The translations under genes and the position numbers were made by a program. Shown here one piece after another: positions 1-16,318 of a stretch of 64,000 bases of DNA. Origin of the DNA: Haliea sp. GTDB lineage: Bacteria > Pseudomonadota > Gammaproteobacteria > Pseudomonadales > Halieaceae. The notes beneath the pieces were generated by a model that saw nothing but the letters and a program-made list of their open reading frames with translations, searched no databases and was not told where the DNA came from. The stretch lies in assembly GCA_031409615.1 (NCBI GenBank), contig JANNXP010000141.1, positions 25 through 64,024 of the forward strand, in the 5' to 3' direction. Numbering within the stretch: the stretch's first letter is position 1; every line of letters starts with the position of its first letter.

Positions 1-1290
1 TACCGCAAAGCGCTTCTTGGCACGCACCTGTATCGGGTTCAGATTGGGCCGATCTAGGCCAGTACGGGCATACGAGAACCCTGCAAAGAGATCCCGGTGT
101 TGCTCAGGATCACTGACCACTGATACCAGGTGCTTAATCAGTGCTTCTCCGGTGGCACCAAAATATAAACCACAACTTGTTTTCAACTGGTCGACAAATT
201 CTTGGGTATCCTGCCCTCCGGTCTCAGGGAACATTTCTGCGGGTAGGGCAATATCCAGTATACGTACCCGTTGACCAGTGGTACCGGTACTCGATGAGGA
301 GTTCTCAACCTGCCATTCCAGAGGATACTCACCGGTACTGCCTATCTGGGTCTTCCAACGGTAACGCTCCCGCATTTGACGGTCACCCGTCATTGCGGAT
401 TTTCCAACCCCACCAGCGAGGTTGTAAATGACGCTACCCAGATCAGACATTTTATTGGTACCCACTTCATCCAGCGGCAAAAATATGTCATTGGCGCTCT
501 GTGCGAGCCCCTCAAGTGCGTTAGCGGTAGTATTCCAGCGTTGGATTATCGTGTCAGTTGGATTCTCCTCAGGGTCTGAACCATTGCCCCAGACACTGGC
601 CCCTACCTGAAGTGCGGTAGTCTTTCCCATGCTGCTGAGTCCATACAGGTGGAATCCCCCACCGGTGAGACCAAGTGGGCTCAAGAATGGGGCGGAACAG
701 GCCAAGCCACGGACAAATATCAGGTATGGATTGCCTTTGCATTTGTCGCTTACATGACGTTTCTCCTCTTCAATGGAGCAACTGGCATAGACCGAATGAT
801 GCACAGGTGACTTGCAGTCAGGGAGATGGATGGTATTTTCACCCTCAGTAACAACCTGGGTGGGCAGGGCAAAACCCTGTACTCCCATGGTGTCCGTAAA
901 CCAACCAATACGTTTCACAGCATACTCAGCTCCCACATGACGAAAGCTTTGTAAGTAGTGTAGGACTCTAGCCTGCTTGCCCGGAACGGTAGTGGCACCA
1001 ATGTCCATCAGCTTCTTGATCAGGCTGACTGCATTGTCTGCTATTAGCTGGGACCGAGGCGCATAATGATCACGTACCTCCCCGGAAACCACATCCAGAA
1101 ATTTGATGCGTACCAGGGTTGGAGAATCATCATCACGATATCGGATATTGGCATCAGACCAGATCAGGTCGCAGATTCGGTTGTCAGGGTGTACACTATG
1201 TTCATAGATGCCATGTGAGGTGATGACATAGCCTTCCGGTTGTTGGATACGGACTGTATTGCCATCAGGTAGGGTAACTGAAACTTCCAT
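1..1290 (-). CDS. DUF927-family ATPase/helicase (replication protein), partial, runs off window
   Basis: Manual translation: ATG at 1290 with GGAG RBS, at least 430 codons with no stop; GGFHLYGLSSMGKTT Walker A (619-642), RWNTTANALEG and LPLDE Walker B. Confidence 0.85.
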   Translation of the reverse strand, partial: MEVSVTLPDGNTVRIQQPEGYVITSHGIYEHSVHPDNRICDLIWSDANIRYRDDDSPTLVRIKFLDVVSGEVRDHYAPRSQLIADNAVSLIKKLMDIGATTVPGKQARVLHYLQSFRHVGAEYAVKRIGWFTDTMGVQGFALPTQVVTEGENTIHLPDCKSPVHHSVYASCSIEEEKRHVSDKCKGNPYLIFVRGLACSAPFLSPLGLTGGGFHLYGLSSMGKTTALQVGASVWGNGSDPEENPTDTIIQRWNTTANALEGLAQSANDIFLPLDEVGTNKMSDLGSVIYNLAGGVGKSAMTGDRQMRERYRWKTQIGSTGEYPLEWQVENSSSSTGTTGQRVRILDIALPAEMFPETGGQDTQEFVDQLKTSCGLYFGATGEALIKHLVSVVSDPEQHRDLFAGFSYARTGLDRPNLNPIQVRAKKRFAV

Positions 1291-1367
1291 AATAATATCT
1301 CCAAATTGAAATGACCGAACCGACATTGGTTCGATGGAGATACTCTAAATTTCGTTAGGTTGGACTA

Positions 1368-1407
1368 CTGGGTAGTAAGTAGTAGCAATTGAAACATAAC
1401 AACCTGA
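1368..1407 (-). promoter_or_regulatory. Degenerate copy of 40-bp palindromic box upstream of DUF927 gene
   Basis: CTGGGTAG-N24-CAACCTGA; same 24-nt spacer length, TAA start and ATAA end as the 6374 copy. Confidence 0.5.
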
Positions 1408-1516
1408 AATGATTCAGACTCGATTAGACATACAGTGCCAGTTTTTGTGTCTCCACCTCACGATAGCGGTCATTCTGGCCTGGATAAGTGCAGGGGCCGC
1501 TGCCACCTCACAGCGG

Positions 1517-1586
1517 TCCTACCGTAGAAGTCACCGGCGCTGCGCGGCTTTATCTCGCAGCGTCCGTCTGGACTGCCGGGTTAGGG
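1517..1586 (-). other. attC (59-base element) recombination site, R' mutated
   Basis: Minus strand CCCTAAC-CCGGC-AGTCCAGA-CGGACGCTGCG...CGCAGCGCCG-GTGACT-TCTAC-GGTAGGA; hairpin with bulged base; upstream ORF stop codon inside R''. Confidence 0.75.
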
Positions 1587-1814
1587 ATTGGGTCGACTAT
1601 CAAGGCGATGCTTTGCGTCAGCTATTAGCGACTCAAGCGCCCCAGAATCTCGCACCGAACTGACGACGACCTCTGCCATAGTTATCAATGCCTCGTCGTT
1701 AGACCCAAAGACTCTGAATCGGAGCTTTTGCCCATAGTCCCATATTTCGGCAGCGCAGCGATACGGAGGAAAAGCAGCTTCGATGTGTGAGCAAATATCT
1801 TGATCAGATAGCAT
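1581..1814 (-). CDS. Hypothetical 77-aa protein in integron-like cassette
   Basis: GGAG RBS within core-like GCTAGGA (1824-1830); stop TAA inside attC R''. Confidence 0.6.
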   Translation of the reverse strand: MLSDQDICSHIEAAFPPYRCAAEIWDYGQKLRFRVFGSNDEALITMAEVVVSSVRDSGALESLIADAKHRLDSRPNP

Positions 1815-1832
1815 TTGGGATGCTCCTAGCTT

Positions 1833-2270
1833 TTAGCGAAAGCGCTGGCAATAGACCTTTGAAATAATGAACGAGCCTGCTTGTTGATTGTCAGACCCGG
1901 AAACGATGTATTTCATATGCATACCCTGATCAAATGACCACTTGATGTCGTTGTCGGAGCAATTGCGCTGACCTATAAGTTCTTGCGCTTTAGCGAGAAA
2001 GTTCTGATCAAGATGAGCGGATGGGTAGTTCACCATCTTGATGTGATAGATGGTTGATGCTGTGCTTGCCTCAACTCTAGTGAGTTGCGTCTGGCTGTCC
2101 AGCATTGCCGGAAGCCCAAGATTCAAATCGACATTCGATTTAGCTGCCGCTTGCTGTTTATCTTGAAGAGTTGCAACTTGCTGAGGCGGTTTTTGAGCAG
2201 CGCGGCGTTCGATTTTGAAAATCGTCCAAACGAACACAACAACGATGATGATACCGATGGTCTTGAGCAT
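1833..2270 (-). CDS. Membrane-anchored exported protein, GspS/AspS pilotin-like or PA3611-like
   Basis: N-terminal TM segment; LPAMLDSQTQLTRVE...C...C pattern. Confidence 0.5.
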   Translation of the reverse strand: MLKTIGIIIVVVFVWTIFKIERRAAQKPPQQVATLQDKQQAAAKSNVDLNLGLPAMLDSQTQLTRVEASTASTIYHIKMVNYPSAHLDQNFLAKAQELIGQRNCSDNDIKWSFDQGMHMKYIVSGSDNQQAGSFIISKVYCQRFR

Positions 2271-2664
2271 ATAAACCGATAACAGTTAAGTGTACGGCAC
2301 CAACCGTATAACATGTTGCCGCCTAACACCAGAACGAGCATCCCGGAGGAACGGTTTTTCTATTTTTTCTCAACAGCTTAAAAATCTCGATTGTTATACC
2401 GTCAGGATAGTCTGCTCTCGCCGTATAACACCCTTCAGCACCTTTGTCGGTTTTGCCACTACTCAGGCACTGTTAGGATCGGCTGAACTGAATGCGAGTG
2501 GTTCGGTCTTTTTGATAGCACAGCTCAGACGGTCGCTTTTAGGCGAGGCTGTGTGAAAACGCAAAGACCGACAAAAGGAACTGAAAATTCTGGATTAATG
2601 GCTAGGTTAGAAAGAGACAACTTTAAAACCACTCTACTTCTGACCGCTGCTAAAAATGGGGGAA

Positions 2665-3141
2665 TTACCGAGGGTCATCCAATCTTAAAGCAGTAACGAC
2701 TCCATTCTCCGTGTTGCAGATGACGGATTGGTAGTATGTGGTGTCCCCTGAGGAGAGATTGTCGAAAAAGCCGCCCCCTGGATTCCTAACCTTTGGTTTA
2801 AAAGGCACCTCCTTCGCAGCGAGATAAATCTGGTATTTCATATACCCGACGACACGCGCCTCGTTACGCAAATTGGTACGTGAAGCGTAAGAACCATATC
2901 CGCTTAGATACGGGTCTCTATCTGGATAGGCGGACCTGACCGCACTCACACAACTCGCTATTGCATTATCTAGGTCACGGTTGGCAATTTTGTCCACATT
3001 GTCAGCAACCTCGTCCACTTTATTGCCACCTTCTATCATCACACCTATAATTTTGTCGCATCCGCTTAACAGCATCATCGCCCCAATGATTAGAGAGCCA
3101 CCAATCGCAGGAACCCAGTATTTCATAGTCATCGGCACCAC
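2665..3141 (-). CDS. Hypothetical lipoprotein
   Basis: Signal peptide with lipobox LLSGC. Confidence 0.6.
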   Translation of the reverse strand: MVPMTMKYWVPAIGGSLIIGAMMLLSGCDKIIGVMIEGGNKVDEVADNVDKIANRDLDNAIASCVSAVRSAYPDRDPYLSGYGSYASRTNLRNEARVVGYMKYQIYLAAKEVPFKPKVRNPGGGFFDNLSSGDTTYYQSVICNTENGVVTALRLDDPR

Positions 3142-3517
3142 CCGGTCAGCATTAAAGTGTCTAACGATAATGCTAGGTTAGACCCCTATGTTTTTACTGG
3201 AAACCGATAGATTACGCAAGTTCTTACATCTTTCAGAGCTGAGGATACTACCTTAGTTGACTGGATCAGTCGATCCCAAATCAACAGCTAGAAGAGGCAG
3301 CATACCCTGAAGGGAAGGTTAATTCTCTCTAACGCCAAGGGCCGCATTTAGGTGCGAGGCGGGAGTTCGTGCTCCAGGCTCAGCTAAGGCCGCTATAGAG
3401 TAGTAAAGCGGACGTACACCGGTGAGTTTTCGACGAGTAATTTTTGTCTTTTCCCACGTCAAAGCAGTACTTTCAGCAGTCATGACCTAGTGTCCGCTTT
3501 CATCAGGAAATTACGGT

Positions 3518-4075
3518 TCAAAATTTATTGCCCGCGCTTGGGTTTGACACTGGCCCTTCTCTGCCCCCCAGTGGTCTATTGAAGTACTCGTCTTTATAGT
3601 AGGAGTCTACTGAGCAACTATACTGCTCATACAGACCTTGTTGACGACCTCTGTACTTCTCCATCAAAACGGCACTTAAGTTTTTCCTATTTATGTGAAA
3701 CTCCATTCCAGTATCGTTCGATATTCTCCAGTCAACAAAATATATGATCGCGTAATTGGCATCACTAAAGTCAACATGTGTGGTATACCCCTCACTGGCG
3801 GTGTCGAACAGATTTATACCGCAGAAATATTTGTTGGCAATAAAACCGCCCTCTATCGCGTATTCCTTACCCCTCAATACGTGAACCTCTAAAGAACCGC
3901 ACCTATTTTTTCTGTAAGGCTTACATGAGAGAATCTTGTAAACTTCTAAAGACTCGCAGAATGAGTAGCTTCCATTATTTATACATAGCTTTTGCTTTGC
4001 GCTATCACACCCACCAAGGAAAAAGGCAATGACCAAAAGAAGGGGGATATATTTGGTATAATTGGCGATGCGCAT
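3518..4075 (-). CDS. Hypothetical lipoprotein
   Basis: Signal peptide with lipobox FLGGC; GGGAG RBS. Confidence 0.6.
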   Translation of the reverse strand: MRIANYTKYIPLLLVIAFFLGGCDSAKQKLCINNGSYSFCESLEVYKILSCKPYRKNRCGSLEVHVLRGKEYAIEGGFIANKYFCGINLFDTASEGYTTHVDFSDANYAIIYFVDWRISNDTGMEFHINRKNLSAVLMEKYRGRQQGLYEQYSCSVDSYYKDEYFNRPLGGREGPVSNPSAGNKF

Positions 4076-4173
4076 GAAAGCTCTCCCATCTCGAGTTTCA
4101 GCCGCTACATTTTGCTGTGATAAAAAACAAAGGTATTAACTCAGCTACTTAGTCTTAGATTAGAGAACGCGTC

Positions 4174-4545
4174 ATGATAAGTCAAATACTGGTGCTCTGT
4201 ACTTTTTTCTTGGTAGCGCCTGCCAGTGCCCAAGACAATTCCGACAAAGAAGCAGAAGAATTTATCGCTGCATTCACCCTCGAAACTGTCGTTGAAAAAT
4301 CTATTAATGAAGGAGCAGAAGGCCTTTATTATACCGGCTACCTGGATGCTGCGATCCATTCCGGTCAGTTCACGATAGCTCGAGATTCCGGATTGAATTA
4401 CTGTCCGCCTGGTAACCTAGCGGTTAACCATGCCACCGTTTGGAGTTCCTTCGATAGGTTCGCTGCCGCAAACTCGAAAAGCGCAACTCAAATGCATACG
4501 ATGCACAGCATCGTAACTTGGCTTTTGTGGATGTTCCCGTGTTGA
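4174..4545 (+). CDS. Rap1a/Tai-like periplasmic immunity protein
   Basis: Signal peptide, GYLDA...YCPP...FPC terminal pattern typical of Rap1a family. Confidence 0.55.
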   Translation: MISQILVLCTFFLVAPASAQDNSDKEAEEFIAAFTLETVVEKSINEGAEGLYYTGYLDAAIHSGQFTIARDSGLNYCPPGNLAVNHATVWSSFDRFAAANSKSATQMHTMHSIVTWLLWMFPC

Positions 4546-4801
4546 GGCGCGGCATGGGAAGCCGCGCTCACTGGCGCGAATGACCGCTATAAGTCGGCTG
4601 CGGCACTCAGGGCCAGTATAGCCAAAACGACCGCTTCTAGGTGCGATTAGAGACCTCCTGCTTCCGGATATTGCCCTTTTAAAAGGTCCGCTTCCGGGAA
4701 AAGTGGTTACTAGAGCTACGCCCGATAGTACACTATCTGTCGGATTCGCTCTGGTGTTTCACAATTACCCGGAATAGATTTTCTACATTTACCTCAGCAC
4801 T

Positions 4802-5980
4802 TTATGGAGGCGTTCCAAATCGTCGTGCAACGAGGGTTTTGATCCTAGCTTCGATGATGTTGTGTGTTTTTTCACCAGCAACACATTCACACCAGGAACG
4901 AATAATATCTCGAAGCTCAGAAGATTTCCCGTTTTTTGTCGGTAGCCCTATAGGCGTTGCTTCAAGTTCATAGGTGTAACCCTGCCGTTTTGCAAAGGAC
5001 ATATCATTCGATTGCGCCGCAACGGCAGAGATGTAGTTGTAGCGACTGTGTATAGCTTGGCCACCTTTCTTCAGTGCTTCTACATCTCGATCAATAGCCT
5101 TTTCGGTGTCCTGTGGCAGACGTCTAAACTGAGTATAAACATCAAAGTTCAATATATTGGTAATCAGGCGCACAGCCAAGAGAGTTGGCGCAATCAAACG
5201 AGCATCGACTTCTCGTTCAAAATAATTCAGATCATCAAGTTTCGCCTGTAAGTCATCTATGGTGGCCTCCAACTTCTCAATGAAAATGTCATCAAGAAAC
5301 CTTAGCTCCAAGCGTTCTGCCATTGGCGTAGTGATGGAGGTATAGAGCTGTCGGAAGTGCTTAATCGTGTTATCAATCTGTTCTTTTTCAGCATCAAGAT
5401 CTCGCTGTATTACCGAACCGGCAATTCCGCCGGATTTTTTGATAACCTCCTCATCTTCTTTATACATAGCAAACACCCTAGCGAGGCTTGCATAAACATC
5501 CATCCTGAAAAATTCCGGGTATGGTTCCTCATGCAGTTTCTTAAAATTTGCTTGGTCTAATGGAGCAAAGTGACGAAGATACTTTTCGGTAGTCGCTGAA
5601 ATTTGCGCATCCTTAAACAGCTCCTCGTATGCCTTGCACTTTTTTGCCGCGATGACTTTCGGCTTCCATATCTTGTCATAGTGAGACTGACTTACCGTTA
5701 CGTAATCATCAGCTGTGATCTCTGGCAAAATATCTCCAGTGTCCGGGTGAACCACCACAACACGACCATTGATATTTCTCGCTATAGGATCTAGACGGTG
5801 CATAAATATCTGTGCTCCCCCACTGTAGTCCTTTAAATATTCTCCTGTAGTAAATATGGTTCGGTCAGAAGATTTAGGCTCGTAGCCGTGTCGATCTCCT
5901 CCATAAAATGTGGCAGCAAAATCGCGTAGATCTCTGGCAGTTACACTGAACGCTTTACCTGGCTTTTTTGTTTTTGCCAT
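4802..5980 (-). CDS. Hypothetical 392-aa protein, coupled to the HTH gene
   Basis: Long ORF; TAATG stop/start overlap at 5978-5982. Confidence 0.75.
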   Translation of the reverse strand: MAKTKKPGKAFSVTARDLRDFAATFYGGDRHGYEPKSSDRTIFTTGEYLKDYSGGAQIFMHRLDPIARNINGRVVVVHPDTGDILPEITADDYVTVSQSHYDKIWKPKVIAAKKCKAYEELFKDAQISATTEKYLRHFAPLDQANFKKLHEEPYPEFFRMDVYASLARVFAMYKEDEEVIKKSGGIAGSVIQRDLDAEKEQIDNTIKHFRQLYTSITTPMAERLELRFLDDIFIEKLEATIDDLQAKLDDLNYFEREVDARLIAPTLLAVRLITNILNFDVYTQFRRLPQDTEKAIDRDVEALKKGGQAIHSRYNYISAVAAQSNDMSFAKRQGYTYELEATPIGLPTKNGKSSELRDIIRSWCECVAGEKTHNIIEARIKTLVARRFGTPP

Positions 5981-6312
5981 TAGGTGTCCATTCCTCGTGC
6001 ACGGGTGTTTATGGTGTCTACCTCAGCCAGATGCTTATATTTAGGTCGGGTGGCTAAAAAATGATCGAGGTCTGTCTTCAGGTACTTCACAGGCTTGCCA
6101 ATCTTAATGAATTTGGGTGGATCGCCACCATCGGAAATAATTCCTGTCTTTCTGACCTTCTTGAGCCATTCCTCGCTCATGCCAAGGTAGGTCGCTGCCT
6201 CGCTGGTATCCAGTACCAGCCTGTCAGAGCGGTCCAAGGAAGACGATCTGAGCGTGCTGAGAATCGCCTGAAGTGTACTGTCTATCTTTGAAATGTCGAT
6301 GATGTCGTTCAT
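5980..6312 (-). CDS. Excisionase/AlpA-like helix-turn-helix protein
   Basis: LDTSEAATYLGMSEEWLKKVR...PPKFIKIGKPVKY, downstream of integrase. Confidence 0.8.
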   Translation of the reverse strand: MNDIIDISKIDSTLQAILSTLRSSSLDRSDRLVLDTSEAATYLGMSEEWLKKVRKTGIISDGGDPPKFIKIGKPVKYLKTDLDHFLATRPKYKHLAEVDTINTRARGMDT

Positions 6313-6373
6313 TGTCTGGCCTATTTGACTCGGTTGACTGTGAACGAAATATATCGATCACCGAACTAGGTAG

Positions 6374-6413
6374 CCGGGTAGTAAACACATCAAAATCGCG
6401 CATAACTACCCAG
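6374..6413 (-). promoter_or_regulatory. 40-bp palindromic box upstream of xis
   Basis: CCGGGTAG-N24-CTACCCAG, plus extra CTAGGTAG at 6366-6373. Confidence 0.6.
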
Positions 6414-6419
6414 GCTAAT

Positions 6420-7682
6420 TTAGTCCGCCAATAACTCAACAGCGCCTGCCTTGTGGTCCTGAGCCAAGTGAGCATACCGGAGCGTGGTTCCCAGATCCGA
6501 ATGTCCCAATAACTCTCGTATAGTGTTCAGAGGCACACCGAGCATCACTAGCCTGCTAGCGAAGTGATGCCGTAAGTCATGGAATCTGAAGTCAGTAATA
6601 CCAGCAGATGCCAATACAGACTGCCACGCCGTCTTGATATCCACAAACCGGTTTTCGTTTCGGTTCTTGAACACCCAACCAGAACAGGGTGATTGCTGTT
6701 TACTCCAACTCGTTAATACCTCCATAGCCCGCTTGTTCAGGTTTACATGGCGCACCTTGCGGGATTTAGCATTAGCCGCCCGTACGGTGATTACTTTTTG
6801 ATCGAAATTAACGTCATGCCATTTCAGGCAAAATATCTCTCCTTTTCGAAGACCCGTATTAATGGCTAATAGCACCATAGGTTCAATATGGTCTACAAAC
6901 TCCCCATCCTTGAATTCGGGATACAATTCGTACCCTCGGTCTGCACGCCAGTCGTTGGCACTGGCCCTAGCTTCTGCTAGCCCACAGTGACGAAGCCGGA
7001 GGGCTTTATAGAGACTCCCCTCCTCCACCTTCGACAGATAACGGATCATCTCATCGTCCTCCTGCCTGAGGTTCTTCACTTCGGCTAGCGGATTCGTATC
7101 AATATGCTTTGTTGCAATCGCTCTTGAGAACACAGCCCGTAAGCAAGTCAGATTGCGATTAACTGTTGCTGGCTTAACTGGATTACCCTGCTTGTTGGTC
7201 CGGGCCAACTCCCCTACCTGCCACTTTTCGATCTCGGCAGCTGTAATCAGGGCTATTGGCTTGCTCATCAAGTGGTCAAAATAACGATTCAGCACATAGA
7301 TGTTTGAGCTACCTCTTTTGTTGTGCTTCAGTACCCATGGCTCGTAGTGCTCCTCAATAAATACACGCAACGTCATCGCTTGATTTCGAATCGCATTGTC
7401 TCGCTTAATCTGCTTCTCCGCTTGGGGATCTTTACCTGTGGCAATATCCCCTGCCGTGGCTTTTGCCATTTCCCGAGCTTGGGTTAGAGTCACATCCCCA
7501 TGCCTACCTAGTTTCAACCTGACCCGTTTACCCGTATTAGACTTATAGCTAAAATAGTAAGTCCGTCTACCGGTGGGCTGTATCCGCAACAGAAACCCTG
7601 GCAACTGAATATCAACTGCTTCATAGGGCTTGGCTTCGGGGATCAGTGAAATAATGCTCTTTTCAGTAAATTTGATTTTCAT
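6420..7682 (-). CDS. int: Tyrosine recombinase/integrase with N-terminal arm-binding domain (P4-like)
   Basis: TGLRKGE, HDLRHH, LGH, RYAH catalytic motifs; GFLLRIQPTGRRTYY arm-binding N-terminus. Confidence 0.93.
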   Translation of the reverse strand: MKIKFTEKSIISLIPEAKPYEAVDIQLPGFLLRIQPTGRRTYYFSYKSNTGKRVRLKLGRHGDVTLTQAREMAKATAGDIATGKDPQAEKQIKRDNAIRNQAMTLRVFIEEHYEPWVLKHNKRGSSNIYVLNRYFDHLMSKPIALITAAEIEKWQVGELARTNKQGNPVKPATVNRNLTCLRAVFSRAIATKHIDTNPLAEVKNLRQEDDEMIRYLSKVEEGSLYKALRLRHCGLAEARASANDWRADRGYELYPEFKDGEFVDHIEPMVLLAINTGLRKGEIFCLKWHDVNFDQKVITVRAANAKSRKVRHVNLNKRAMEVLTSWSKQQSPCSGWVFKNRNENRFVDIKTAWQSVLASAGITDFRFHDLRHHFASRLVMLGVPLNTIRELLGHSDLGTTLRYAHLAQDHKAGAVELLAD

Positions 7683-7741
7683 TGGAACCTCTCTAGTCTG
7701 TTGAACTGGATCAACAGCCTAAGGAGGAAAGACATTGATAT

Positions 7742-7781
7742 CTGGGTAGCTAAAGGCATCAAAATGCGAATAACTACCTAG
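7742..7781 (-). promoter_or_regulatory. 40-bp palindromic box upstream of int
   Basis: CTGGGTAG-N24-CTACCTAG; shares CATCAAAAT and ATAA with the 6374 copy. Confidence 0.6.
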
Positions 7782-7822
7782 GTGGGAAACCTGAACGGAC
7801 TGCATTCAGATGGAAGCAAAAC

Positions 7823-7944
7823 TTAAGTCCGTATTAAGTCCTTAAGTCATACTCTCAGGGATTCTTCAGTACCCCCTGCATAACCATTAACCTGTATCCA
7901 ATCAAATATTAACTGAATATAATCAATGTATTACGGGGTACTGA
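7823..7944. repeat. Short repeats beside att (candidate arm-type sites)
   Basis: TTAAGTC(C/A) x3 (7823, 7834, 7842); perfect IR TCAGTACCCC (7866-7875) / GGGGTACTGA (7935-7944). Confidence 0.5.
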
Positions 7945-7984
7945 AAGGTACTAGGGCAGTATGAGACAATAGCCCAGAATCGCT

Positions 7985-8029
7985 CTCCTAAGGGGAAGGC
8001 CGCGTGTTCGAATCTCGCAGGGCGGACCA
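7985..8029 (+). tRNA. 3' half of tRNA-Arg(CCT); att-site remnant, not a complete tRNA
   Basis: Anticodon loop CTCCTAA, GGGGA, T arm GCGTG-TTCGAAT-CTCGC, AGGGCGG-A-CCA; no matching 5' half upstream. Confidence 0.75.
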
Positions 8030-8483
8030 CTAACATACTGATATATAACATTGTATATTGAATTGGTGGAATTGTTATTTGGAGTAAATCTCCTCGTAAG
8101 TGCAACGGGTCACACTTCCTTCGATTCAGGCGTCGCACATATAGGTTAGATTCACAAATTGCGATCGCGAACAGAACAAGCCAAAGAGTATCTACCAGCG
8201 GCATGAATCAAAAGTTAAATAACGGCAAGCCTGAAGACTGCCTGAAGTGAGGCTCGCCTTTATTTCAATAGCAGACGACCCAGTAAACCGAACGTCTTAT
8301 TGAAATTCTAGCAGTTTGCGTCGTGGTCAACCTTAGAGATATTAGTGTTGTATCATCTTTGAACTCCGACTGGCCGATGCTACTTAAGATGTAGTTATTG
8401 TTCAGTGTCTGCCTGATAAACTGGTTCACGCCGGACTAAGGATACCGCTGCATGGATAGCACACAGGATTATATAAAGATGGA

Positions 8484-8641
8484 GCAACGCAGGCTGACAT
8501 TGAACCAGTAGGTTCCGACTTCATTCTTAACGAGGCCATTGGCACCCGCGGTGAGCAATCGACTTCAGGACAGCAGGCAAGGCTGTGGAGTCGCACAGGC
8601 AAGCTGCTGGCGACGACCGAAAACTGGGCTGGTTCAGGTAA
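8484..8641 (+). pseudogene. C-terminal remnant of a thioesterase-family gene
   Basis: DFILNEAIGTRGEQSTSGQQARLWSRTGKLLATTE then 1-nt frameshift into LGWFR*; no start codon. Confidence 0.45.
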
Positions 8642-8706
8642 GCGGGCCGTAAGGGGATTTATAAGTTAGCTGTCCTGCCTGCTCGGCTGCGCCAGTGATG
8701 ATCGGA

Positions 8707-9384
8707 TCAGCACAGCTGAACACCCACTGCGGTTGAAGGAATGCGATGGCGGGTAGTGATGCCCAGTGCACACAGACCCAGCGCCATAAGTGCCAAGGTG
8801 TTGGTAATCGGAACCGATGACGCAGTGGCATTCCGTACGAACCACGATCCCGTTACCCCGTCCTGATTACCCTTAAGCGTACCACGATCAGTATATGCCC
8901 ACTGAACGAAAGTACTGGGTGGGGCGGAGGCCGCCACCATTAGGGTGAGGTACGGATTGCCATCGAAATCGAGAGTACGGACGATCGCAGAAATAGCGGC
9001 GCTCCTCGAAAACTCTTCCTGCGGCGTCGTGAGCAAAAAGCCGTCGTGAGTCATGCTGAAAATCCAGCTATTGCCGAATTCAATTAGATTATCAGGCCCA
9101 GGGCCCAGCGCCGTAGATCCCAGGTAATAGTTAAAGAGACCATTCACATTGTCGACACTTGCCCAAGTCCAACCTGTGAGATCGTTGCCCCCCAGGGAGC
9201 CATTACATGACCCGGATGAGGCATCACAAACCGTATTGATGTCGTTCCAGCTATAGCCAATGAAATCCACCGGTTGCAACCATTCCAGCCCACTCACCGT
9301 GACGGGGGGCAGCAATGCGGCACTTGCAGATCCGGCCGTCAAAGAGATTAACAAAACAACCAATAAACCTGTTTTTCTTATCAT
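8707..9384 (-). CDS. PEP-CTERM-type exported surface protein (degenerate sorting signal)
   Basis: Signal peptide from ATG 9384; C-terminal VPITNTLALMALGLCALGITTRHR; paralogous to 9699-10367. Confidence 0.75.
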   Translation of the reverse strand: MIRKTGLLVVLLISLTAGSASAALLPPVTVSGLEWLQPVDFIGYSWNDINTVCDASSGSCNGSLGGNDLTGWTWASVDNVNGLFNYYLGSTALGPGPDNLIEFGNSWIFSMTHDGFLLTTPQEEFSRSAAISAIVRTLDFDGNPYLTLMVAASAPPSTFVQWAYTDRGTLKGNQDGVTGSWFVRNATASSVPITNTLALMALGLCALGITTRHRIPSTAVGVQLC

Positions 9385-9698
9385 TAATAATTCCCTCGTC
9401 CTGTCAGCTGCCAGTTCGTCTTGCATTCCCATACTGCACTATACGACAACGCAGTGGAAGACTGGACAAGATCATGTGTAAACCTCCCCATTTTAGTGAA
9501 ATCCCAAATTGGAGTTTTCCGCCCGCTCATGTTTGGCCAGATACTCCCAGTGTAAACCTCCATATAAACTCCAAAATGTACTGCCAGAATTTCAATTAGC
9601 CAACAATGACAGCACTGGCAAAGGCGAAGGCCGCTGGGATTGATGTGGATAAGGCTATTGCTGTTAGTGGCGTGGGATACCTGAACCCGGTTGGGGGG

Positions 9699-10367
9699 TT
9701 AGGTGTGTTGCTTTTGCTTCCGGCGAGTGTAGCCAAGAGCAGCGAGGCCCAAGCCTAGTAGGGGCAGGGTTGCGGGGACGGGGGCTTCTGTTGGTGGTTC
9801 TGATTGGTCACGGAAAAACCAGCCTCCGCGCGTGGGAGACACAGTGCCCACCCCAGTGAACTGGTCTGACGAAAAGGTGTCCGTCCGAGTTTCCGCTGTC
9901 CCGTCTTGTATGCTTGTTGAGTAGGCTAGCCCGGACCCATTGAGGTTGCGCAAAATGCCGCGCATACGACACTGGCCCGAGGGGCCAGCCTCACAGTCCA
10001 AGGGGATGAAGTCTTCAAAGAACGCCGGGGCCCACAAAGAATTACGCTGCGTGCGATTGCCCGGGACGAACGGATGCAAAAGGGGAGAAAAACCTGCGTC
10101 CGAGAGATACACATTAAATAAGCCGTTGATCTCGTGAATTCCCGCCCACATCCAGCCCGTTAAATCATTGCCGCCAGCACCCCCGGTGCAAATACCTGTG
10201 CTCGCGTCACACGCAGTGGCGATATCATTCCAGCTAAGATTTACAAAATCTCTCGGTTGTAACCACTCCTGCCCATTCACTGCAACGGCCGGCATCAATC
10301 CGGCATTCGCAGCCCCAGCCAAGCTAAACACCAGTGCGGCCATTGATCTACCAATTGCCTTGAACAT
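9699..10367 (-). CDS. PEP-CTERM-type exported surface protein
   Basis: Signal peptide; C-terminal VPATLPLLGLGLAALGYTRRK. Confidence 0.85.
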   Translation of the reverse strand: MFKAIGRSMAALVFSLAGAANAGLMPAVAVNGQEWLQPRDFVNLSWNDIATACDASTGICTGGAGGNDLTGWMWAGIHEINGLFNVYLSDAGFSPLLHPFVPGNRTQRNSLWAPAFFEDFIPLDCEAGPSGQCRMRGILRNLNGSGLAYSTSIQDGTAETRTDTFSSDQFTGVGTVSPTRGGWFFRDQSEPPTEAPVPATLPLLGLGLAALGYTRRKQKQHT

Positions 10368-10406
10368 CCTTATTCCCCATTATTCTATTCACGATCAATT
10401 AGACAG

Positions 10407-10421
10407 GCAAAATACGAGCCA
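10407..10421 (-). promoter_or_regulatory. Sigma-54 -24/-12 promoter
   Basis: TGGCTCGTATTTTGC with GG-N10-GC spacing, 40 bp upstream of the PEP-CTERM gene. Confidence 0.7.
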
Positions 10422-10474
10422 CGTCAATAAACACGTTGGTTGTGGCTCTACCTCTCGCGACTTGGCGGGGTTGT

Positions 10475-10491
10475 TGTAAAGAATCCTGACA
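10475..10491. promoter_or_regulatory. Candidate enhancer (bEBP) site
   Basis: TGTAAAGAATCCTGACA (TGT-N11-ACA) upstream of the sigma-54 site. Confidence 0.45.
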
Positions 10492-10613
10492 ACTCAAAGT
10501 GGGCGCCAAATACCGCAATCATCCCAGCGGGTCGTATTCTTCGTCATCCTCAATCGGCGCATTGTCCCAGCAGTTTCCTCGGCGACTCATGCTCTGCTGC
10601 ATGCGGTAGATGA

Positions 10614-11720
10614 TTACTTCCTTCGCTCAATTGCATTGAACGCCTGAGTGACGCGTTGTAGGTAGTTGTCTACGTAAAACTTTTCTATTGCTTGCTGAAC
10701 GGCCTTCCCTTCAGGTAGTGTTTTTCCATCGACTATTTGCTGTAGTAGTTCGGCTAACTTTTCTTTGTGCCCTGAGGCATATAAGCTGCCATTAACAGAC
10801 TCAGCAATAATTTCCAGTGGCCCCGTTTCACAGTCAGAACTAATTGCATAAATTCCATATGAATTAGCCTCCAGCAGAGCCATTACCAACCCTTCGTATT
10901 TGGACGTCAATATGAGGCTTGTTACCTCGCGCAGCGATTCCGTAATATAGTGCCACGGGTCATTTTGCCAACCATGCCATCGGATCTGGCCTGTAATATT
11001 TAGTTTATTGGCAAGTGCTTTTAACTCAAATTCATCTTCGCCTGAACCAACAATATTGAGCATCCAATCGCCTTTGACAAAGACTAACGCTTCAAACAAT
11101 TCGCGCATATTTTTCTGCCCATCGGCAATCACGCGACCAACATATATGAATTGTTTAGTTTTTTCTGGTCTTGGAATAATGACTTCATGACGGGGTACAG
11201 GATTGTAAATTGTAAATATCGTCTTTCCATCAACTCCCATTTCGATGAGCTGATTTGTAATTCCGTCACTAATGGAAAGGTGACCATCCGCTCGACATAG
11301 ATATCTTGCCCTTGACATGCTGGTTACAGAAAAATGGACCCATGAAAGAACAACAGTTTTATGAAATGAAAATTCGCGAGCCATAACACTAATAAAACAA
11401 AGAATCGGATCCAAGCTAAGGATCAAGTCTGGTTTTTCATGACGAAATATTTTGCGTAGAGAATTTGCAAGAAACAAACGCCCTAATTTGCGGTGTCTGA
11501 CTGGTGGGGTAATTTTGCAGTAAGCCTGGCCAGCCAGCCAGTCATCGTTCACTTCCCTTCTAACTTTCCTATTCGTTTTTGCCGCTCTAAAAAAAACTAA
11601 TGAAATATTGATCGTTGGTTCACTAGCTCTAAGTAGCGTAATGAATCTAAGGATGACGGTTTCCATGCCGCCCAACCCGCTGAGTTCATTGCCTACGATG
11701 ATCACTCTATTTACTTCCAT
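10614..11720 (-). CDS. waaB: GT4 glycosyltransferase, LPS 1,6-galactosyltransferase WaaB-like
   Basis: [43 protein letters not shown] motifs colinear with enterobacterial WaaB. Confidence 0.75.
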
Positions 11721-11781
11721 AGAGACGTACTCCGCGTTGATTCACAATGAAAGTTTCTCTCATAGTGAGATCTACTAGATG

Positions 11782-11810
11782 TTGCATGAATACCGTGTAT
11801 CCGGTATTTT
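11782..11810 (+). promoter_or_regulatory. Sigma-70 promoter with operator for higBA
   Basis: TTGCAT-N17-TATTTT; ATACCG-N6-CGGTAT palindrome at 11790-11807. Confidence 0.7.
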
Positions 11811-11816
11811 CGGCAT

Positions 11817-12106
11817 ATGATCACATCATTTGGCAACAGGGCACATCTGACCTATTTCACGGCATACCTAGCCGCTATGCCAGAAAGCTGCCAAGCCAAA
11901 TACACGAACTCGCGCTGTACAAGCTCGATGTTCTGAATGCTGCTCAAGCCCTTGATGACCTACGCTCTCCTCCGGGAAATAGGCTCGAGACTTTAAAGGG
12001 TGAACTTAAAGGCTTTTGCAGCATTCGCATTAATTCCCAGTGGCGTATCATTTTCCGCTGGATAGACAGTAGCGCCACCGATGTTCAAATTTTGGACTAT
12101 CACTAG
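11817..12106 (+). pseudogene. higB: HigB (RelE/ParE family) toxin with 1-nt deletion near 11842
   Basis: MITSFGNRA in one frame, TSDLFHG...DLRSPPGNRLE...SIRINSQWRIIFRW...DYH in another. Confidence 0.75.
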
Positions 12107-12123
12107 CACTTGAGAGGTATCAT

Positions 12124-12414
12124 ATGATTCCCAGCAATAGAACAGCAACACATCCAGGAGTCATTTTGCTCAAAGACTTTCTTGAGCCACTGGAATTGAC
12201 ACAAACGGCATTGGCGGCACACGTCGGCGTCCCGGTGCAACGAGTAAATGAAATTGTTCGTGGCAAGCGCGGCATTACACCAGAAACAGCATGGCTTCTT
12301 TCTGAAGCATTGCGTACAACTCCAGAGTTTTGGCTTAACCTTCAGTCCACTCATGATTTATCTGCAAATCGTCCCGATCATCATGTTGGGCCTTTGGTTG
12401 CTGCGGGCATGTAA
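12124..12414 (+). CDS. higA: HigA antitoxin (HTH-XRE)
   Basis: THPGVILLKDFLEPL...RVNEIVRGKRGITPETA...FWLNLQ. Confidence 0.92.
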   Translation: MIPSNRTATHPGVILLKDFLEPLELTQTALAAHVGVPVQRVNEIVRGKRGITPETAWLLSEALRTTPEFWLNLQSTHDLSANRPDHHVGPLVAAGM

Positions 12415-12465
12415 CAAGACCATGTTGCGGACAACTTACGGTTGCCGCAAATAGCGGCGTGAAGG
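12409..12465 (+). other. attC site terminating the higBA cassette
   Basis: ATGTAAC-AAGAC-CAT[G]TTGC-GG[A]CAAC-TTACG-GTTGCC-GCAAATA-GCGGC-GTGAAGG; two bulged bases; higA stop in R''. Confidence 0.7.
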
Positions 12466-12539
12466 CCCACTGACTAACTAATCCCGATGATTTATGCTAT
12501 TACTGAGCGGCAAACTACGTCCACATCGAGGCTATTCAA

Positions 12540-12866
12540 ATGACCGTCAGAAAAATCGTTAGTTGCTTTGCGTTACTCACTGTCTTCTTTGCAACCGCGT
12601 CCATAGCCGTAGCACAAGACGGTAGCACTACTGGCTCTACGCCAACTCTGGTAGCTCCTGATACCGATGCCTTTGAGCAGGAAAAAGCAGAGGCCAAGGA
12701 ACCCGCTGGCGAATGTTGTCATACTAGAGGGGTTCCAGAGTGCGGCGGTGCTTGCGATATTTGTTGCGAGACGGGCGAACAAGCGTCCTGTGTCGCGGGT
12801 AGCTGCGATCCGAACAACACATTTGCCTGCACGTGTGCAGTGACCACATCGTGCAGTTGTAACTAG
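12540..12866 (+). CDS. Secreted cysteine-rich small protein
   Basis: Signal peptide, acidic/Thr linker, 12 Cys in the last ~50 aa. Confidence 0.7.
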   Translation: MTVRKIVSCFALLTVFFATASIAVAQDGSTTGSTPTLVAPDTDAFEQEKAEAKEPAGECCHTRGVPECGGACDICCETGEQASCVAGSCDPNNTFACTCAVTTSCSCN

Positions 12867-12889
12867 TCGCCGTATACAACGTGTGTCTG

Positions 12890-13300
12890 CTAAGGGGCAG
12901 GCACAGTACGGTGCGGATACAATTCAGCGGTCAGGCGGTAGAGCGCGGTGTCGAAACTATCCTCCGGATGTTCTTTGCAATACTTTTCCAGCCATACCAT
13001 GATCGTTTTCGTGTTCTTTTTGCCGGCAATATCGTAGGTGTTAGGCGCTAATCTGTTGATGGCCGTTAGATAGCCCATGGTGTACAGCGAAAATTCGTAG
13101 AGGGTGCCCCAGTTATCCTGGTCCTTGGCCTTGCTTAACGCGCCATTGAGTCCTGCACAACTTTCTACCGCGCTCATTGCTCGCACCTGATACTGCCTGT
13201 CTGTATCCGCAGCAAAGCCAGGGGCACTTGTCACGGACAACACAACAGCCAACAGGACGAGGGGACAACTGCGGCGCGGCGGCATCACAGTAGGCCGCAT
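12890..13300 (-). CDS. Exported hypothetical protein (HdeA/Rap1a-like helical fold?)
   Basis: Signal peptide; SC...GYLTAIN...WLEKYCKEHP; TGATG overlap with upstream gene. Confidence 0.6.
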   Translation of the reverse strand: MRPTVMPPRRSCPLVLLAVVLSVTSAPGFAADTDRQYQVRAMSAVESCAGLNGALSKAKDQDNWGTLYEFSLYTMGYLTAINRLAPNTYDIAGKKNTKTIMVWLEKYCKEHPEDSFDTALYRLTAELYPHRTVPAP

Positions 13301-13827
13301 CAGCAATGCCTGGCGAGCTGAGCAGCCAGCTTCGCTTTCATCGGCAACACCCACTGTGCCTTGAGCTGGGCTGATAACAGGCCGACCTCGTCCAGGTCAT
13401 CGCACAGTTTCATCTGGTGCGTGAAATCGAACAGGTCAAACTGGCGGCAAATCTGCGCCTTATCATTCAGGGTCAAGAACGAAACACCGGGCGTTTCAAA
13501 ATAGCTGCCATCAGTACGCGTCCCGGGGCCCCGGTTCATCCAGTGGGTAATCAGCTGGTTGCCCGCACCCGTGTAAATCCCCATGTAGGGAAACGTCCAG
13601 CCGTCCCAGCCCACCTTCATGTCGCGCCCATAGTGCGTAGCCTTGATCTCGTCGATACCGTTGGCCGTCACCTCCATCACCCCGGCGTACTGGCAGGTAT
13701 AGATACAGTCACGGGCGTACAGTTCATCCACGAAGAATACCCAGTCGTCGGTGCGGGAGGCTTCCTCATGCGCGGCGATCAGTTTATCTGCTGTCGCCCT
13801 TAGTACCTCATTGCTCAATACATTCAT
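13300..13827 (-). CDS. SnoaL/NTF2-like protein
   Basis: Size and ELYARDCIY...G.SFLTLNDKAQICRQFDLFD pattern. Confidence 0.7.
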   Translation of the reverse strand: MNVLSNEVLRATADKLIAAHEEASRTDDWVFFVDELYARDCIYTCQYAGVMEVTANGIDEIKATHYGRDMKVGWDGWTFPYMGIYTGAGNQLITHWMNRGPGTRTDGSYFETPGVSFLTLNDKAQICRQFDLFDFTHQMKLCDDLDEVGLLSAQLKAQWVLPMKAKLAAQLARHC

Positions 13828-13878
13828 TACGTGGTCCCTGAAATCTCTCGGTGCGTAGTCAGACTCTTTTATCGATTG

Positions 13879-14772
13879 CTAGAGATAGGCCTGCGCCAGT
13901 GCGGCGACGGTAGCACGCACATTGTTGCGAGTGTAGCCCAATTCCCCATTGTCCGGCTCATAACTGATAACGGCGTTGCGCCCGGCGTACAAAATCATAT
14001 CGGGGAACAAGGGATGCTCTGCGTACGACACGTCGAGCACGACAGGGTTGCCGACAGCCTCAAAGTACATCTCCAGATAATCCTTCCAACTGAGATTCTC
14101 ATCGCCCACCAGATAGGCCTTGCCGCCGATGCCGCGCTCCAGAGCACCGGCAATCGCTTCAGACATGGATTGACTGGAGATATGGTTCACTCCGCCAGCA
14201 GGCGCAATCACGGGCATACCTTCCAGCCGCCCTGCGGCGTACTGCACCAGTGCTTGCAGATGAGGCAGCGCGAGCCCGGGGACAACCCCGAGGATAAACG
14301 GTGCGTTAAGGCTGCACACCGTGAAGGATGGGCTATTCAGCGCGCGCAGGCTTTCATCCGCCAGATGGCGGGAGCGTACGTAGGGGTTGCTGTGGATTTT
14401 CTCGGGCACTACCTGGGGATAATAAGTGCCCACGTACACAGCGCGCTCTATTCCCGCGTCCTTCGCATGTGCAAAGAAGCGCGGTATCGCCTGCGTATTC
14501 ACGCGCTCAAAAAAGAGTGCGTCGTCTGCGCCCGGAGGCAACTGACGAATATCGGCACCGGCGGCAAAGACCATCTGATCGAAATCGGCGAGCGCCTCGA
14601 CGGGAACTTCGTCATCCACGTAGTTGCCGGGAAGGTGAGCAAAGTCACGCAAACAGTCGAGCACAGGGGCACAGCGCGACATCAGTGTTACCTTGTGCCC
14701 GACCTTGCGCAGGTGCAATGCCGCGTGAGCACCCGTAAGGCCGGTACCGCCTACCACCAGAATGTTCGCCAT
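13879..14772 (-). CDS. NAD-dependent epimerase/dehydratase
   Basis: VVGGTGLTG Rossmann motif. Confidence 0.85.
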   Translation of the reverse strand: MANILVVGGTGLTGAHAALHLRKVGHKVTLMSRCAPVLDCLRDFAHLPGNYVDDEVPVEALADFDQMVFAAGADIRQLPPGADDALFFERVNTQAIPRFFAHAKDAGIERAVYVGTYYPQVVPEKIHSNPYVRSRHLADESLRALNSPSFTVCSLNAPFILGVVPGLALPHLQALVQYAAGRLEGMPVIAPAGGVNHISSQSMSEAIAGALERGIGGKAYLVGDENLSWKDYLEMYFEAVGNPVVLDVSYAEHPLFPDMILYAGRNAVISYEPDNGELGYTRNNVRATVAALAQAYL

Positions 14773-14784
14773 GACAGATGTTCC

Positions 14785-15531
14785 CTACGGGCGCATAAAT
14801 TGGCCGCCGTCCACATTCAGGATGTGACCGGTAATCCAGCTGGCCTCGTCAGACAAGAGAAATAGCGCGGCATCCGCCAGATCCTTGGGCTGACCCAGGC
14901 GCTTGATGGGCATACTCTTGATCATTTCCTGGGCGTAATCACCGGCGATCCTGGTCAGTGCACCGGTATCGGTAGGCCCTGGCGCAATCGCATTGATTCG
15001 AATCTTGCGCCAGCCCAGTTCATTGGCCAGGCTCTGGGTAATACCGTTCACCGCAAGTTTGGCAACGCCATAAAAACCCGTGCTCATCCACGCTGCCGTG
15101 GAGGACTGATTGATGATGGCACCACCGCCCGCGGCAGTCATAGCGTCAACCACCGCGCGCGTCATGATGAGACAGCCGTGCGCATTGATGCGCATGAACT
15201 TCTCCAGGTAATCCATCTCCACGTTCAGATAACCTTCGATTTTCATATCACCAAAAATAGCGGCATTGTTGATCAGGTAATTGATGGCGCCGTACGTGTC
15301 CACGGTCGCCTTGGCGCAGGCTTTGGTGGAGTCCTCGCAGCCCACATCGGTTTGCACAAACAGAGCGCTGCCGCCATTCTTGTTGATGGCGTCAGCCACG
15401 CGCTGACCACCTTCGGAATTAAGTTCGGCGATGACCACATTCATGCCGCGCTGTGCACAGGCCATGGCGTAACCTTCGCCAATGCCGCCGCCGGCGCCAG
15501 TTACAATGATCGTTTTACCCGTAAAATCCAT
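14785..15531 (-). CDS. SDR oxidoreductase
   Basis: TGAGGGIG, NNAA, YGVAK. Confidence 0.92.
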   Translation of the reverse strand: MDFTGKTIIVTGAGGGIGEGYAMACAQRGMNVVIAELNSEGGQRVADAINKNGGSALFVQTDVGCEDSTKACAKATVDTYGAINYLINNAAIFGDMKIEGYLNVEMDYLEKFMRINAHGCLIMTRAVVDAMTAAGGGAIINQSSTAAWMSTGFYGVAKLAVNGITQSLANELGWRKIRINAIAPGPTDTGALTRIAGDYAQEMIKSMPIKRLGQPKDLADAALFLLSDEASWITGHILNVDGGQFMRP

Positions 15532-15544
15532 GTGCGTGTCCTCG

Positions 15545-16318
15545 TTAGAATATTGATTTGGATGTTAGTACATTGGGGCGGATTTCCAGCAGATCAATCG
15601 CCACGCCGGGGGGCTGTGCCAGTGCGTAGCGCACTGACTCTGCCACATGACTGACGTCCATGCCGGTATCCAGATGGGTGCCTGCGTCTTTCCAGGCGGC
15701 GATCGCCGCTGCAAATGCGGCCTTGTTCCAGCCGTCCGCGAAGCTGGTCCAGGCGCCGCCGGGACGGATACAGGTCACGCCAATACCATCGCCCTGCAAT
15801 TCCAGTCGCAGATCGCGTGTAAAACGTTCTACCGCGGCCTTGGTTGCAGCGTAGATCGACAGGTGGCTGATCTCGTCGTAGTGCCAGGCACTGGCCGAGG
15901 AAATGTTGATAATGCGGGGATTGTCCCCGCCGCGCAGCAGGGGGATCGCGGCTTGTGAGCAGAACACGGTACCGAGGAAGTTGGTTTGCAGCTGCAGCAA
16001 CACCTCCTCTTCCACCAGGTCTTCAATCTTGTTGGGGGTGGCCATTCCGGCATTATTGATCAGCCCATCCAACCGCCCGAAATGTGTCTTGATTGCCGTG
16101 AATGCAACACCGATCGCCCCACGTGAACCCACATCGGCGGCCACGCCAAATGCGTGATCCGAGCCGATGTCGGTCACCGCCTGATCCAGATCGGACTGGC
16201 TGCGGCTGATCAGCCCGACGCGCGCGCCGTTCTCTACCAGATTTTTGGCAATCGCCAGGCCAAATCCCCGGGAACCCCCGGTGACGATATAAACCTTGTC
16301 TTGCAACGTGGCACTCAC
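15545..16318 (-). CDS. SDR oxidoreductase
   Basis: TGGSRGFG, NNAG, YAATK. Confidence 0.92.
   Translation of the reverse strand: MSATLQDKVYIVTGGSRGFGLAIAKNLVENGARVGLISRSQSDLDQAVTDIGSDHAFGVAADVGSRGAIGVAFTAIKTHFGRLDGLINNAGMATPNKIEDLVEEEVLLQLQTNFLGTVFCSQAAIPLLRGGDNPRIINISSASAWHYDEISHLSIYAATKAAVERFTRDLRLELQGDGIGVTCIRPGGAWTSFADGWNKAAFAAAIAAWKDAGTHLDTGMDVSHVAESVRYALAQPPGVAIDLLEIRPNVLTSKSIF

Follow-up and report, generated by a model that had tools for sequence, protein, structure and literature searches.

A probable solitary higBA integron cassette, truncated and decaying, at the edge of a tRNA-Arg-linked segment in Haliea

The 678-bp unit at 11782–12459 (+ strand) of the 64-kb Haliea sp. window, by which we mean the whole 64,000-nucleotide stretch analysed, is very probably a solitary integron gene cassette of the SALIN type, a member of a widespread higBA family that has become stranded and is decaying. 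An earlier note on this DNA had proposed an integron cassette of about 680 bp with an attC; homology to units in cassette arrays and a covariance model match to the attC both support this. Searching the 64-kb window by tblastn revealed no IntI, and neither an attI nor a second attC was detected in it, in keeping with the earlier remark that no neighbouring cassette or attI was evident. The locus adds one more well-documented natural solitary cassette to a class that was recently defined, and as an example it is ordinary; it leaves the understanding of integrons and of higBA unchanged.

A G at 11781 is followed by TTGCAT at 11782–11787, as claimed, and homology to cassette relatives starts at this left junction, G/TTGCAT (11781–11787, + strand; slashes within sequences mark junctions or crossover points). 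Two genes follow on the + strand. The first, higB (11817–12106), encodes a RelE/HigB-like toxin (PF05015, E = 1.2e-22) and has suffered a 1-nt deletion after 11837; the second, higA (12124–12414), is intact and encodes a 96-aa HTH_3 antitoxin (PF01381, E = 3.8e-12). HigB is an mRNA-cleaving toxin of the RelE type, and HigA is an HTH antitoxin and repressor. The toxin gene lies upstream of the HTH antitoxin gene, the type II HigBA layout, with the same 17-nt gap as in intact relatives. A 57-nt attC hairpin (12409–12465, + strand), identified by covariance model and homology, closes the unit and overlaps the 7 nt TGAAGGC (12460–12466, + strand), which are foreign both to the cassette relatives and to the flank of a related population that lacks the segment (X21, below). 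In the closest copy, L091, the cassette measures 698 bp and is 85.8% identical to the window unit; relative to it the window unit misses exactly the opening 19 nt and a single nucleotide within higB. Exact-protein look-ups for both neighbouring genes returned no record, and Rfam and tRNA scans of the window gave no match.

The family to which the unit belongs is large. HigA relatives at E ≤ 1e-10 numbered 4627, and the best 120 of the 4627, which were 85–95% identical, came mostly from aquatic Gammaproteobacteria. Copies in unrelated contexts delimit the unit at the nucleotide level (those compared were in Marinobacter ELB17, beside IS elements; in a Pseudomonadales MAG, between pepN and norB; and in Haliea, Amphritea and JGI contigs). 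Homology to them starts at 11775–11782 and ends at 12460–12466 in copies with the window attC type, at 12453 in L012, and earlier in copies with another attC type or with none. Contigs of other organisms from public runs diverge just after 12460, into TTATGT, TTAATC, TTAGCA or TTGAGG, sequences with which cassettes typically begin.

Copies 80–86% identical to the unit sit in cassette arrays. That of L091 consists of BrnT/A, HigBA, YoeB/Phd and CcdAB units; L091, with 7 attC matches, and L098, with 6, both hold arrays in which TA cassettes stand among others. Homologous units also lie in arrays beside an integron integrase. The order in L027 is intI, attI, a first cassette, its attC and then G/TTATGC...higBA, making higBA the second cassette, and in L033 intI is found about 4 kb from higBA; the L027 and L033 integrases score 455 and 449 bits against TIGR02249 (cut-off 265). 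In distant relatives R'' reads GCATAAC and likewise overlaps the higA stop, and GTTATGC stands upstream of the promoter.

HigA proteins 82–84% identical are shared between Gammaproteobacteria and cyanobacterial symbiont MAGs (L016, L017, Prochloron-type), and proteins 58–70% identical, often encoded beside an attC, occur in Balneolales, Chloroflexota, Acidobacteriota and Actinomycetota (L029 and L033–L035, Balneolales; L036–L088). This distribution suggests that higBA cassette traffic crosses phyla very widely. With members in Gammaproteobacteria, Balneolales, Chloroflexota, Acidobacteriota and cyanobacteria, the family is a handy metagenome marker of such traffic.

The window attC has the expected layout up to its last element. 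R'' reads ATGTAAC at 12409–12415, where the earlier note had placed it, with the higA stop TAA (12412–12414) inside; it ends in AAC, as an inverse core should, and aligns to the invariant TAAC of 10–18 array attCs. After it come a 3-nt spacer, the L-box stem, an inner stem-loop and a hybrid R', GTGAAGG (12459–12465), the canonical crossover falling between G12459 and T12460. The two bulged bases that had been claimed are G12424 and A12431, single extrahelical bases of the 5' arm, bulged at the same columns as in the attCs of the L027 integron. R' does begin with GTG rather than GTT, again as described. Array homologues of this attC read GTTATGT or GTTGAGG at R', and a core R' of the form GTTRRRY complementary to R'' is missing from the window copy, where the R box GTGAAGG is unpaired in the fold. 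This is damage to an attC, not the mark of another class of site.

Two simple measures were rejected as evidence by themselves. Heptamer complementarity is no more than chance would give, since inverted pairs of at least 7 nt number 29 in an 821-bp stretch, and the folding energy of the hairpin is unremarkable against shuffles (z about −1.1). The significance of the attC comes from the homology boundaries together with an independent covariance match, not from pairing or energy. The seeds for the covariance model (R1) were 10 attCs of other cassettes (L027, L026, L098, L080), none of them of the window's type; they were picked as clear cases with a heuristic finder combining AAC/GTT with constrained folding, which served for nothing else because it let too much through in GC-rich DNA. 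Paired cells made up 79.5% of the seed alignment, versus 31–40% with partners slid, and compensatory changes were seen in 16 of 24 pairs, values that 0 of 500 shuffles reached.

Applied to the whole 64-kb window, this self-built and roughly calibrated model, which may miss other attC types, gave as its top match 12409–12465 (+ strand, full length) at 19.4 bits and a modest E of 0.016; the second-best window match scored 13.9 bits (E = 0.48). A run on 1–16000 with filters off placed 12409–12465 at E = 0.004, and the bulged G and A sit in the bulge columns of R1. Across 25 loci R1 made 47 matches at E ≤ 1; every one was on the strand of higA, and together they outlined arrays (seven in L091, six in L098, seven in L027). 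Sites homologous to the window attC scored 16–39 bits (L003 38.6, L091 27.8, L001 16.4). The earlier note had named failure of the hairpin against attC models as a result that would count against it; in the covariance search that it proposed, 12409–12465 passes.

These results bear directly on the reading of the unit as an ordinary chromosomal higBA operon followed by a terminator-like hairpin, with no cassette involved. The unremarkable hairpin energy and the empty Rfam scan would suit such an operon, and the several non-pairs in the native R box count against a cassette and attC. On the other side, copies of the unit are found again in arrays and in complete integrons, the independent attC model matches the hairpin, no T-run lies 3' of the stem, and the same attC follows other genes: in at least five further metagenomes the window attC sequence (12412–12460) stands behind another gene, whose end reads ...GAAGGCTTCGGGGGT. 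We regard the ordinary operon as refuted by the attC model results in the window and the 25 loci, and as scarcely credible; the unit is much better read as a cassette.

Exchange between genes and attCs was seen in both directions. The window attC type follows another coding end, ...CCAGAAGTTATCCGCGAAGGCTTCGGGGGT/TAACAAG (contig ends at 12412: X1, X2, X7, X8, X9, X14, X22), and the close higBA copies L094–L098 bear other attC types. Genes and attCs are swapped as modules.

A perfect 8-nt inverted repeat, TGGGCCTT and AAGGCCCA (12387–12394 and 12462–12469), brackets the attC in the window copy only. One arm lies in the 3' end of higA and the other in the 7 nt TGAAGGC plus CCA; about 0.1 such pairs would be expected by chance. 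The string at 12459–12469 (GTGAAGG-C-CCA) was considered as a tRNA 3' end and rejected, the preceding stem-loop belonging to the attC in all relatives and having no T-loop.

The earlier note had the cassette inserted at a secondary site, to be recognised in relatives as an empty site TAGATG/TGAAGG. The published secondary-site consensus for genomic insertion is GWT (10.1101/2022.09.11.507474); the GTG junction is off this consensus, and no empty site was found either as a pattern in metagenome_contigs (0 matches) or as a joint in contigs of 14 runs. A 22-mer of the left flank had 0 matches in metagenome_contigs, and none of the contigs of the 14 runs skipped 11782–12459. Neither mark of an attC x attG insertion, a GWT target and an empty site in relatives, was found at this locus.

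A single relative lacking higBA was recovered, the X21 population. Its contig, 96% identical over the right flank, reads ATCTCGCAGGGCAGA and then continues as window 12467 onward; the ATCTCGCAGGGCAGA 15-mer equals window 8012–8026 with one mismatch, a stretch from the 3' end of the tRNA-Arg(CCT) half-copy (3' half, 7975–8029, + strand), which serves the neighbouring integrative element as its att repeat. In X21 the tRNA-Arg abuts 12467 or 12470 onward, and the whole segment 8030–12466 is absent. This variable 4.4-kb segment carries two PEP-CTERM-like genes, a glycosyltransferase gene and higBA, and is bounded by the 5-bp repeat CCACT at 8027–8031 and 12467–12471. The breakpoints of the sole higBA-lacking relative are thus at about 8030 and 12467, not at the cassette ends. 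Breakpoints elsewhere were the outcome that the earlier note had itself given as refuting its insertion model, and that outcome has been reached. The right breakpoint of X21 lies 7–12 bp past the attC crossover, leaving TGAAGGC (12460–12466) accounted for by neither side; these 7 nt resemble the TTGAGGC that follows the window attC type in L001, L091 and X15. The X21 state may be ancestral or may have arisen by a CCACT-mediated deletion.

It is possible, in our tentative estimate, that the cassette never inserted here alone, having come with the 4.4-kb segment 8030–12466 or being the remnant of a larger island or array after deletions. Both junctions would then stem from illegitimate recombination, with the attC hairpin possibly a fragile end point. 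The joining of tRNA-Arg to 12467/12470 in X21, which makes the segment one indel between CCACT repeats, speaks for this, as do the likeness of TGAAGGC to the TTGAGGC found after this attC and the different DNA that other populations have beyond tRNA-Arg and the next 19 bp. Against it, a left breakpoint exactly on a GTT look-alike would have to be coincidental, TGAAGGC and TTGAGGC resemble each other weakly (p about 0.04, post hoc), and X21 could equally well be a secondary deletion.

By whichever route it came, the stranded cassette has stayed in place. Its left junction is spanned by contigs 94–97% identical from other samples (X6, X8, X14), and its right junction by a 93% identical X6 contig in which the GTG is kept. 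Since the same junctions are present in several related populations, the insertion is old and fixed in the lineage. Pairing with R'' is impossible for the hybrid R' GTGAAGG, and together with the fixed junctions this upholds the earlier view that the cassette was immobilised.

The tRNA-Arg(CCT) 3' end has at least three different occupants among related populations (7975–8048, 12467–12480): the native flank with nothing in between (X21, and probably X13 and X14 too), 8030–8048 followed by unrelated DNA (X8, X13), and, in the window, an integrative element with the 4.4-kb segment. The populations in which tRNA-Arg and 8030–8048 run into unrelated DNA mark it as a hot spot of integration that has had more than one occupant. 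In an X6 contig, 11700–11904 matches at 94% identity but the DNA left of 11700, a point that in the window lies 20 nt inside the glycosyltransferase gene, is unrelated; variability thus extends to the cassette's left neighbour.

The left end of the cassette departs from that of its relatives. In cassette context, all close relatives begin G/TTACATG(Y)CC(C)TTTT..., with TTGCATG 19–20 nt further on (L001, L003–L010, L012, L091/092 and L094–097; contig ends of X1, X2, X9 and X14), and GTTACAT is a perfect complement of R'' ATGTAAC. The TTACAT(G) core is missing from the window copy. TTGCAT, the conserved −35 hexamer, is a 6/7 look-alike of it, and the unit does not start with a core G/TTRRRY of its own that pairs with R''. 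The proposal that the core site doubles as the −35 box accordingly fell: the relatives' true core is 19–20 bp upstream of TTGCAT, and because they start at G/TTACATG, with 19 nt missing from the window compared with L091, TTGCAT is the −35 box only. Judged from the alignment with these relatives, the window copy is 5'-truncated onto the look-alike G/TTGCAT. The coincidence of −35 box and core is an accident of truncation, or possibly an off-target recombination footprint; it is no design feature.

The pairing that the earlier note had seen between the two ends, 7 of 7 positions with one G-T wobble, stood in part. There are six Watson-Crick pairs of seven and one T.G, on the top strand only (the reverse complement of GTTGCAT is ATGCAAC). 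Integron integrases recombine attC through its folded bottom strand, and in that strand the wobble is replaced by a C.A mismatch. Bottom-strand folds gave −13.3 kcal/mol with a canonical R' and −9.9 kcal/mol with TTGCAT; the native GTGAAGG forms no R box.

The cassette could have arrived either by IntI-catalysed insertion into the island or a donor, with loss of the leader afterwards, or by import with the island. For the first of these, a full cassette would have been inserted canonically by IntI (attC x attG), here or in a donor, the leader then being deleted between GTTACATG and GTTGCATG and R' changed by a T-to-G point mutation. We consider this history possible, on a tentative footing. 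The two sequences are imperfect 8-bp direct repeats, 7/8 identical and 19–20 bp apart in all close relatives, and loss between them by slippage or microhomology leaves precisely the junction observed; further decay is evident at the locus in the frameshift of higB and, in X6, in drift at positions 11781 and 11786. The cost is two extra events, no intermediate with a leader has been seen at this site, and the TGAAGGC right flank is absent from the X21-type flank.

A different use of the same look-alike would have IntI cross over at G/TTGCAT itself, for example in an attC x look-alike reaction, releasing a leaderless circle that was inserted at TAGATG/TGAAGG and immobilised by the poor GTG junction. 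The left breakpoint lies within 1–3 bp of the GTT in a 6/7 core copy, the right breakpoint against cassette copies is the canonical G/T, the TTGCAT bottom strand still folds attC-like, and imprecise IntI excision at nearby genomic sites is documented (10.1101/2022.09.11.507474). Set against these points are the bottom-strand C.A mismatch, a GTG that does not fit the GWT attG consensus, the failure to find an empty site, a sole higBA-lacking relative that breaks at about 8030 and 12467 with TGAAGGC left over, and the fact that no other copy in the family was seen to start at TTGCAT straight after an attC. On balance we find this route rather unlikely. More doubtful still is the stronger claim that off-target IntI activity in nature left its footprint in the left junction: attC would have recombined with the −35 box, GTTGCATG being a near-copy of the core GTTACATG, and the leaderless variant would have landed outside an integron. 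If it were true, core-like promoter elements in TA cassettes could be alternative crossover points that reshape cassettes in nature.

TTGCAT-N17-TATTTT (−35 at 11782–11787, −10 at 11805–11810, + strand) is present before the ATG at 11817, as reported. It agrees with the sigma-70 consensus at 7/12 positions, and a consensus scan reported no such promoter. Between the hexamers, overlapping the −10, lies a palindrome, AATACCG-N6-CGGTATT (11789–11795 and 11802–11808, + strand), a probable HigA/HigBA operator. The −10 ends 6 nt upstream of the higB ATG, and the higB mRNA is probably leaderless. Copies across the family, down to those of Balneolales, keep the hexamers 17 nt apart with the palindrome in between and the start codon 6 nt after the −10, and this conservation supports an internal, autoregulated and probably leaderless promoter, in line with the earlier suggestion that the cassette carries its own. 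The higB start is GTG, not ATG, in several close relatives (L012, L094–L097); a GTG at the predicted 5' end of a leaderless mRNA fits oddly with leaderless translation.

In intact members of the family, a weak sigma-70 promoter, TTGCAT-17-TAxxxT, with a palindromic operator between its hexamers would drive a probably leaderless higB-higA operon, and the attC allows excision and reinsertion of the unit by an integron integrase via the folded bottom strand. The window unit has lost its first 19–20 bp, including the TTACAT core, so that its left junction lies on G/TTGCAT, and its R' has a foreign downstream half (GTGAAGG) unable to pair with R''; it forms the outer edge of a 4.4-kb accessory segment beside the tRNA-Arg integration hot spot.

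The toxin gene has decayed too. Intact relatives encode a HigB of 96 aa in 291 nt, and the window higB has 290 nt. A frameshift was suspected because the Pfam match of the window HigB begins only at profile position 19, with ATG 11817 in another frame. Related contigs of X1, X2, X6, X8, X9 and X14 have an extra A or T after 11836/11837, and the deletion is reproduced by independent exact contigs from the source samples and by one X14 contig. The HigBA toxin frame is therefore not intact in the window: with the 1-nt deletion after 11837 the toxin is dead in this strain and the antitoxin intact, which on the reading frames leaves only an apparent antitoxin/repressor. A promoter-like TTCGCA-16-TATCAT (9/12) at 12024–12051, inside the 3' part of higB and upstream of higA, could yield antitoxin-only transcription now that higB is broken. 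Three independent lesions on a self-promoted cassette, namely the lost core, the foreign R' and the dead toxin, show decay after stranding.

The locus agrees with a SALIN in pairing one gene unit with one attC and in having, within the 64-kb window, neither an integrase nor an attI nor a further attC around it. As in SALINs, the cassette brings its own expression, and altered junctions are known to arise from imprecise events at sites close by. It differs in a right junction that is GTG rather than GWT, in a 5' leader whose true core is missing, and in its position at the edge of a larger tRNA-linked indel.

TA cassettes, higBA included, are found in sedentary chromosomal integrons such as the Vibrio cholerae superintegron (cf. 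PMC13108822). The window unit shares with these the toxin gene upstream of the antitoxin gene, a promoter inside the cassette and an attC immediately behind the antitoxin gene, and its homologues lie in TA-rich arrays (L091, L098) and complete integrons (L027, L033). Unlike them it is outside any array, its toxin is frameshifted and its attC crippled; the window cassette is no longer able to stabilise an array or be mobilised. With CALINs and decayed arrays (Cury et al. 2016, PMC4889954) it has in common an attC-bearing cassette without an integrase, but the window holds only one detectable attC in 64 kb and no intI pseudogene.

A shorter form of the gene pair was noted at two other loci. The last 38 nt of higB plus higA make up the same truncated unit in L093 (4947–5291) and L098 (1887–2233), with homology beginning at window-equivalent 12069. 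The L093 copy lies between aat and sucD and has no attC, and the L098 copy lies behind a glyoxalase gene within one cassette. The truncated unit is either a recurrent breakpoint or a separate higA-only variant.
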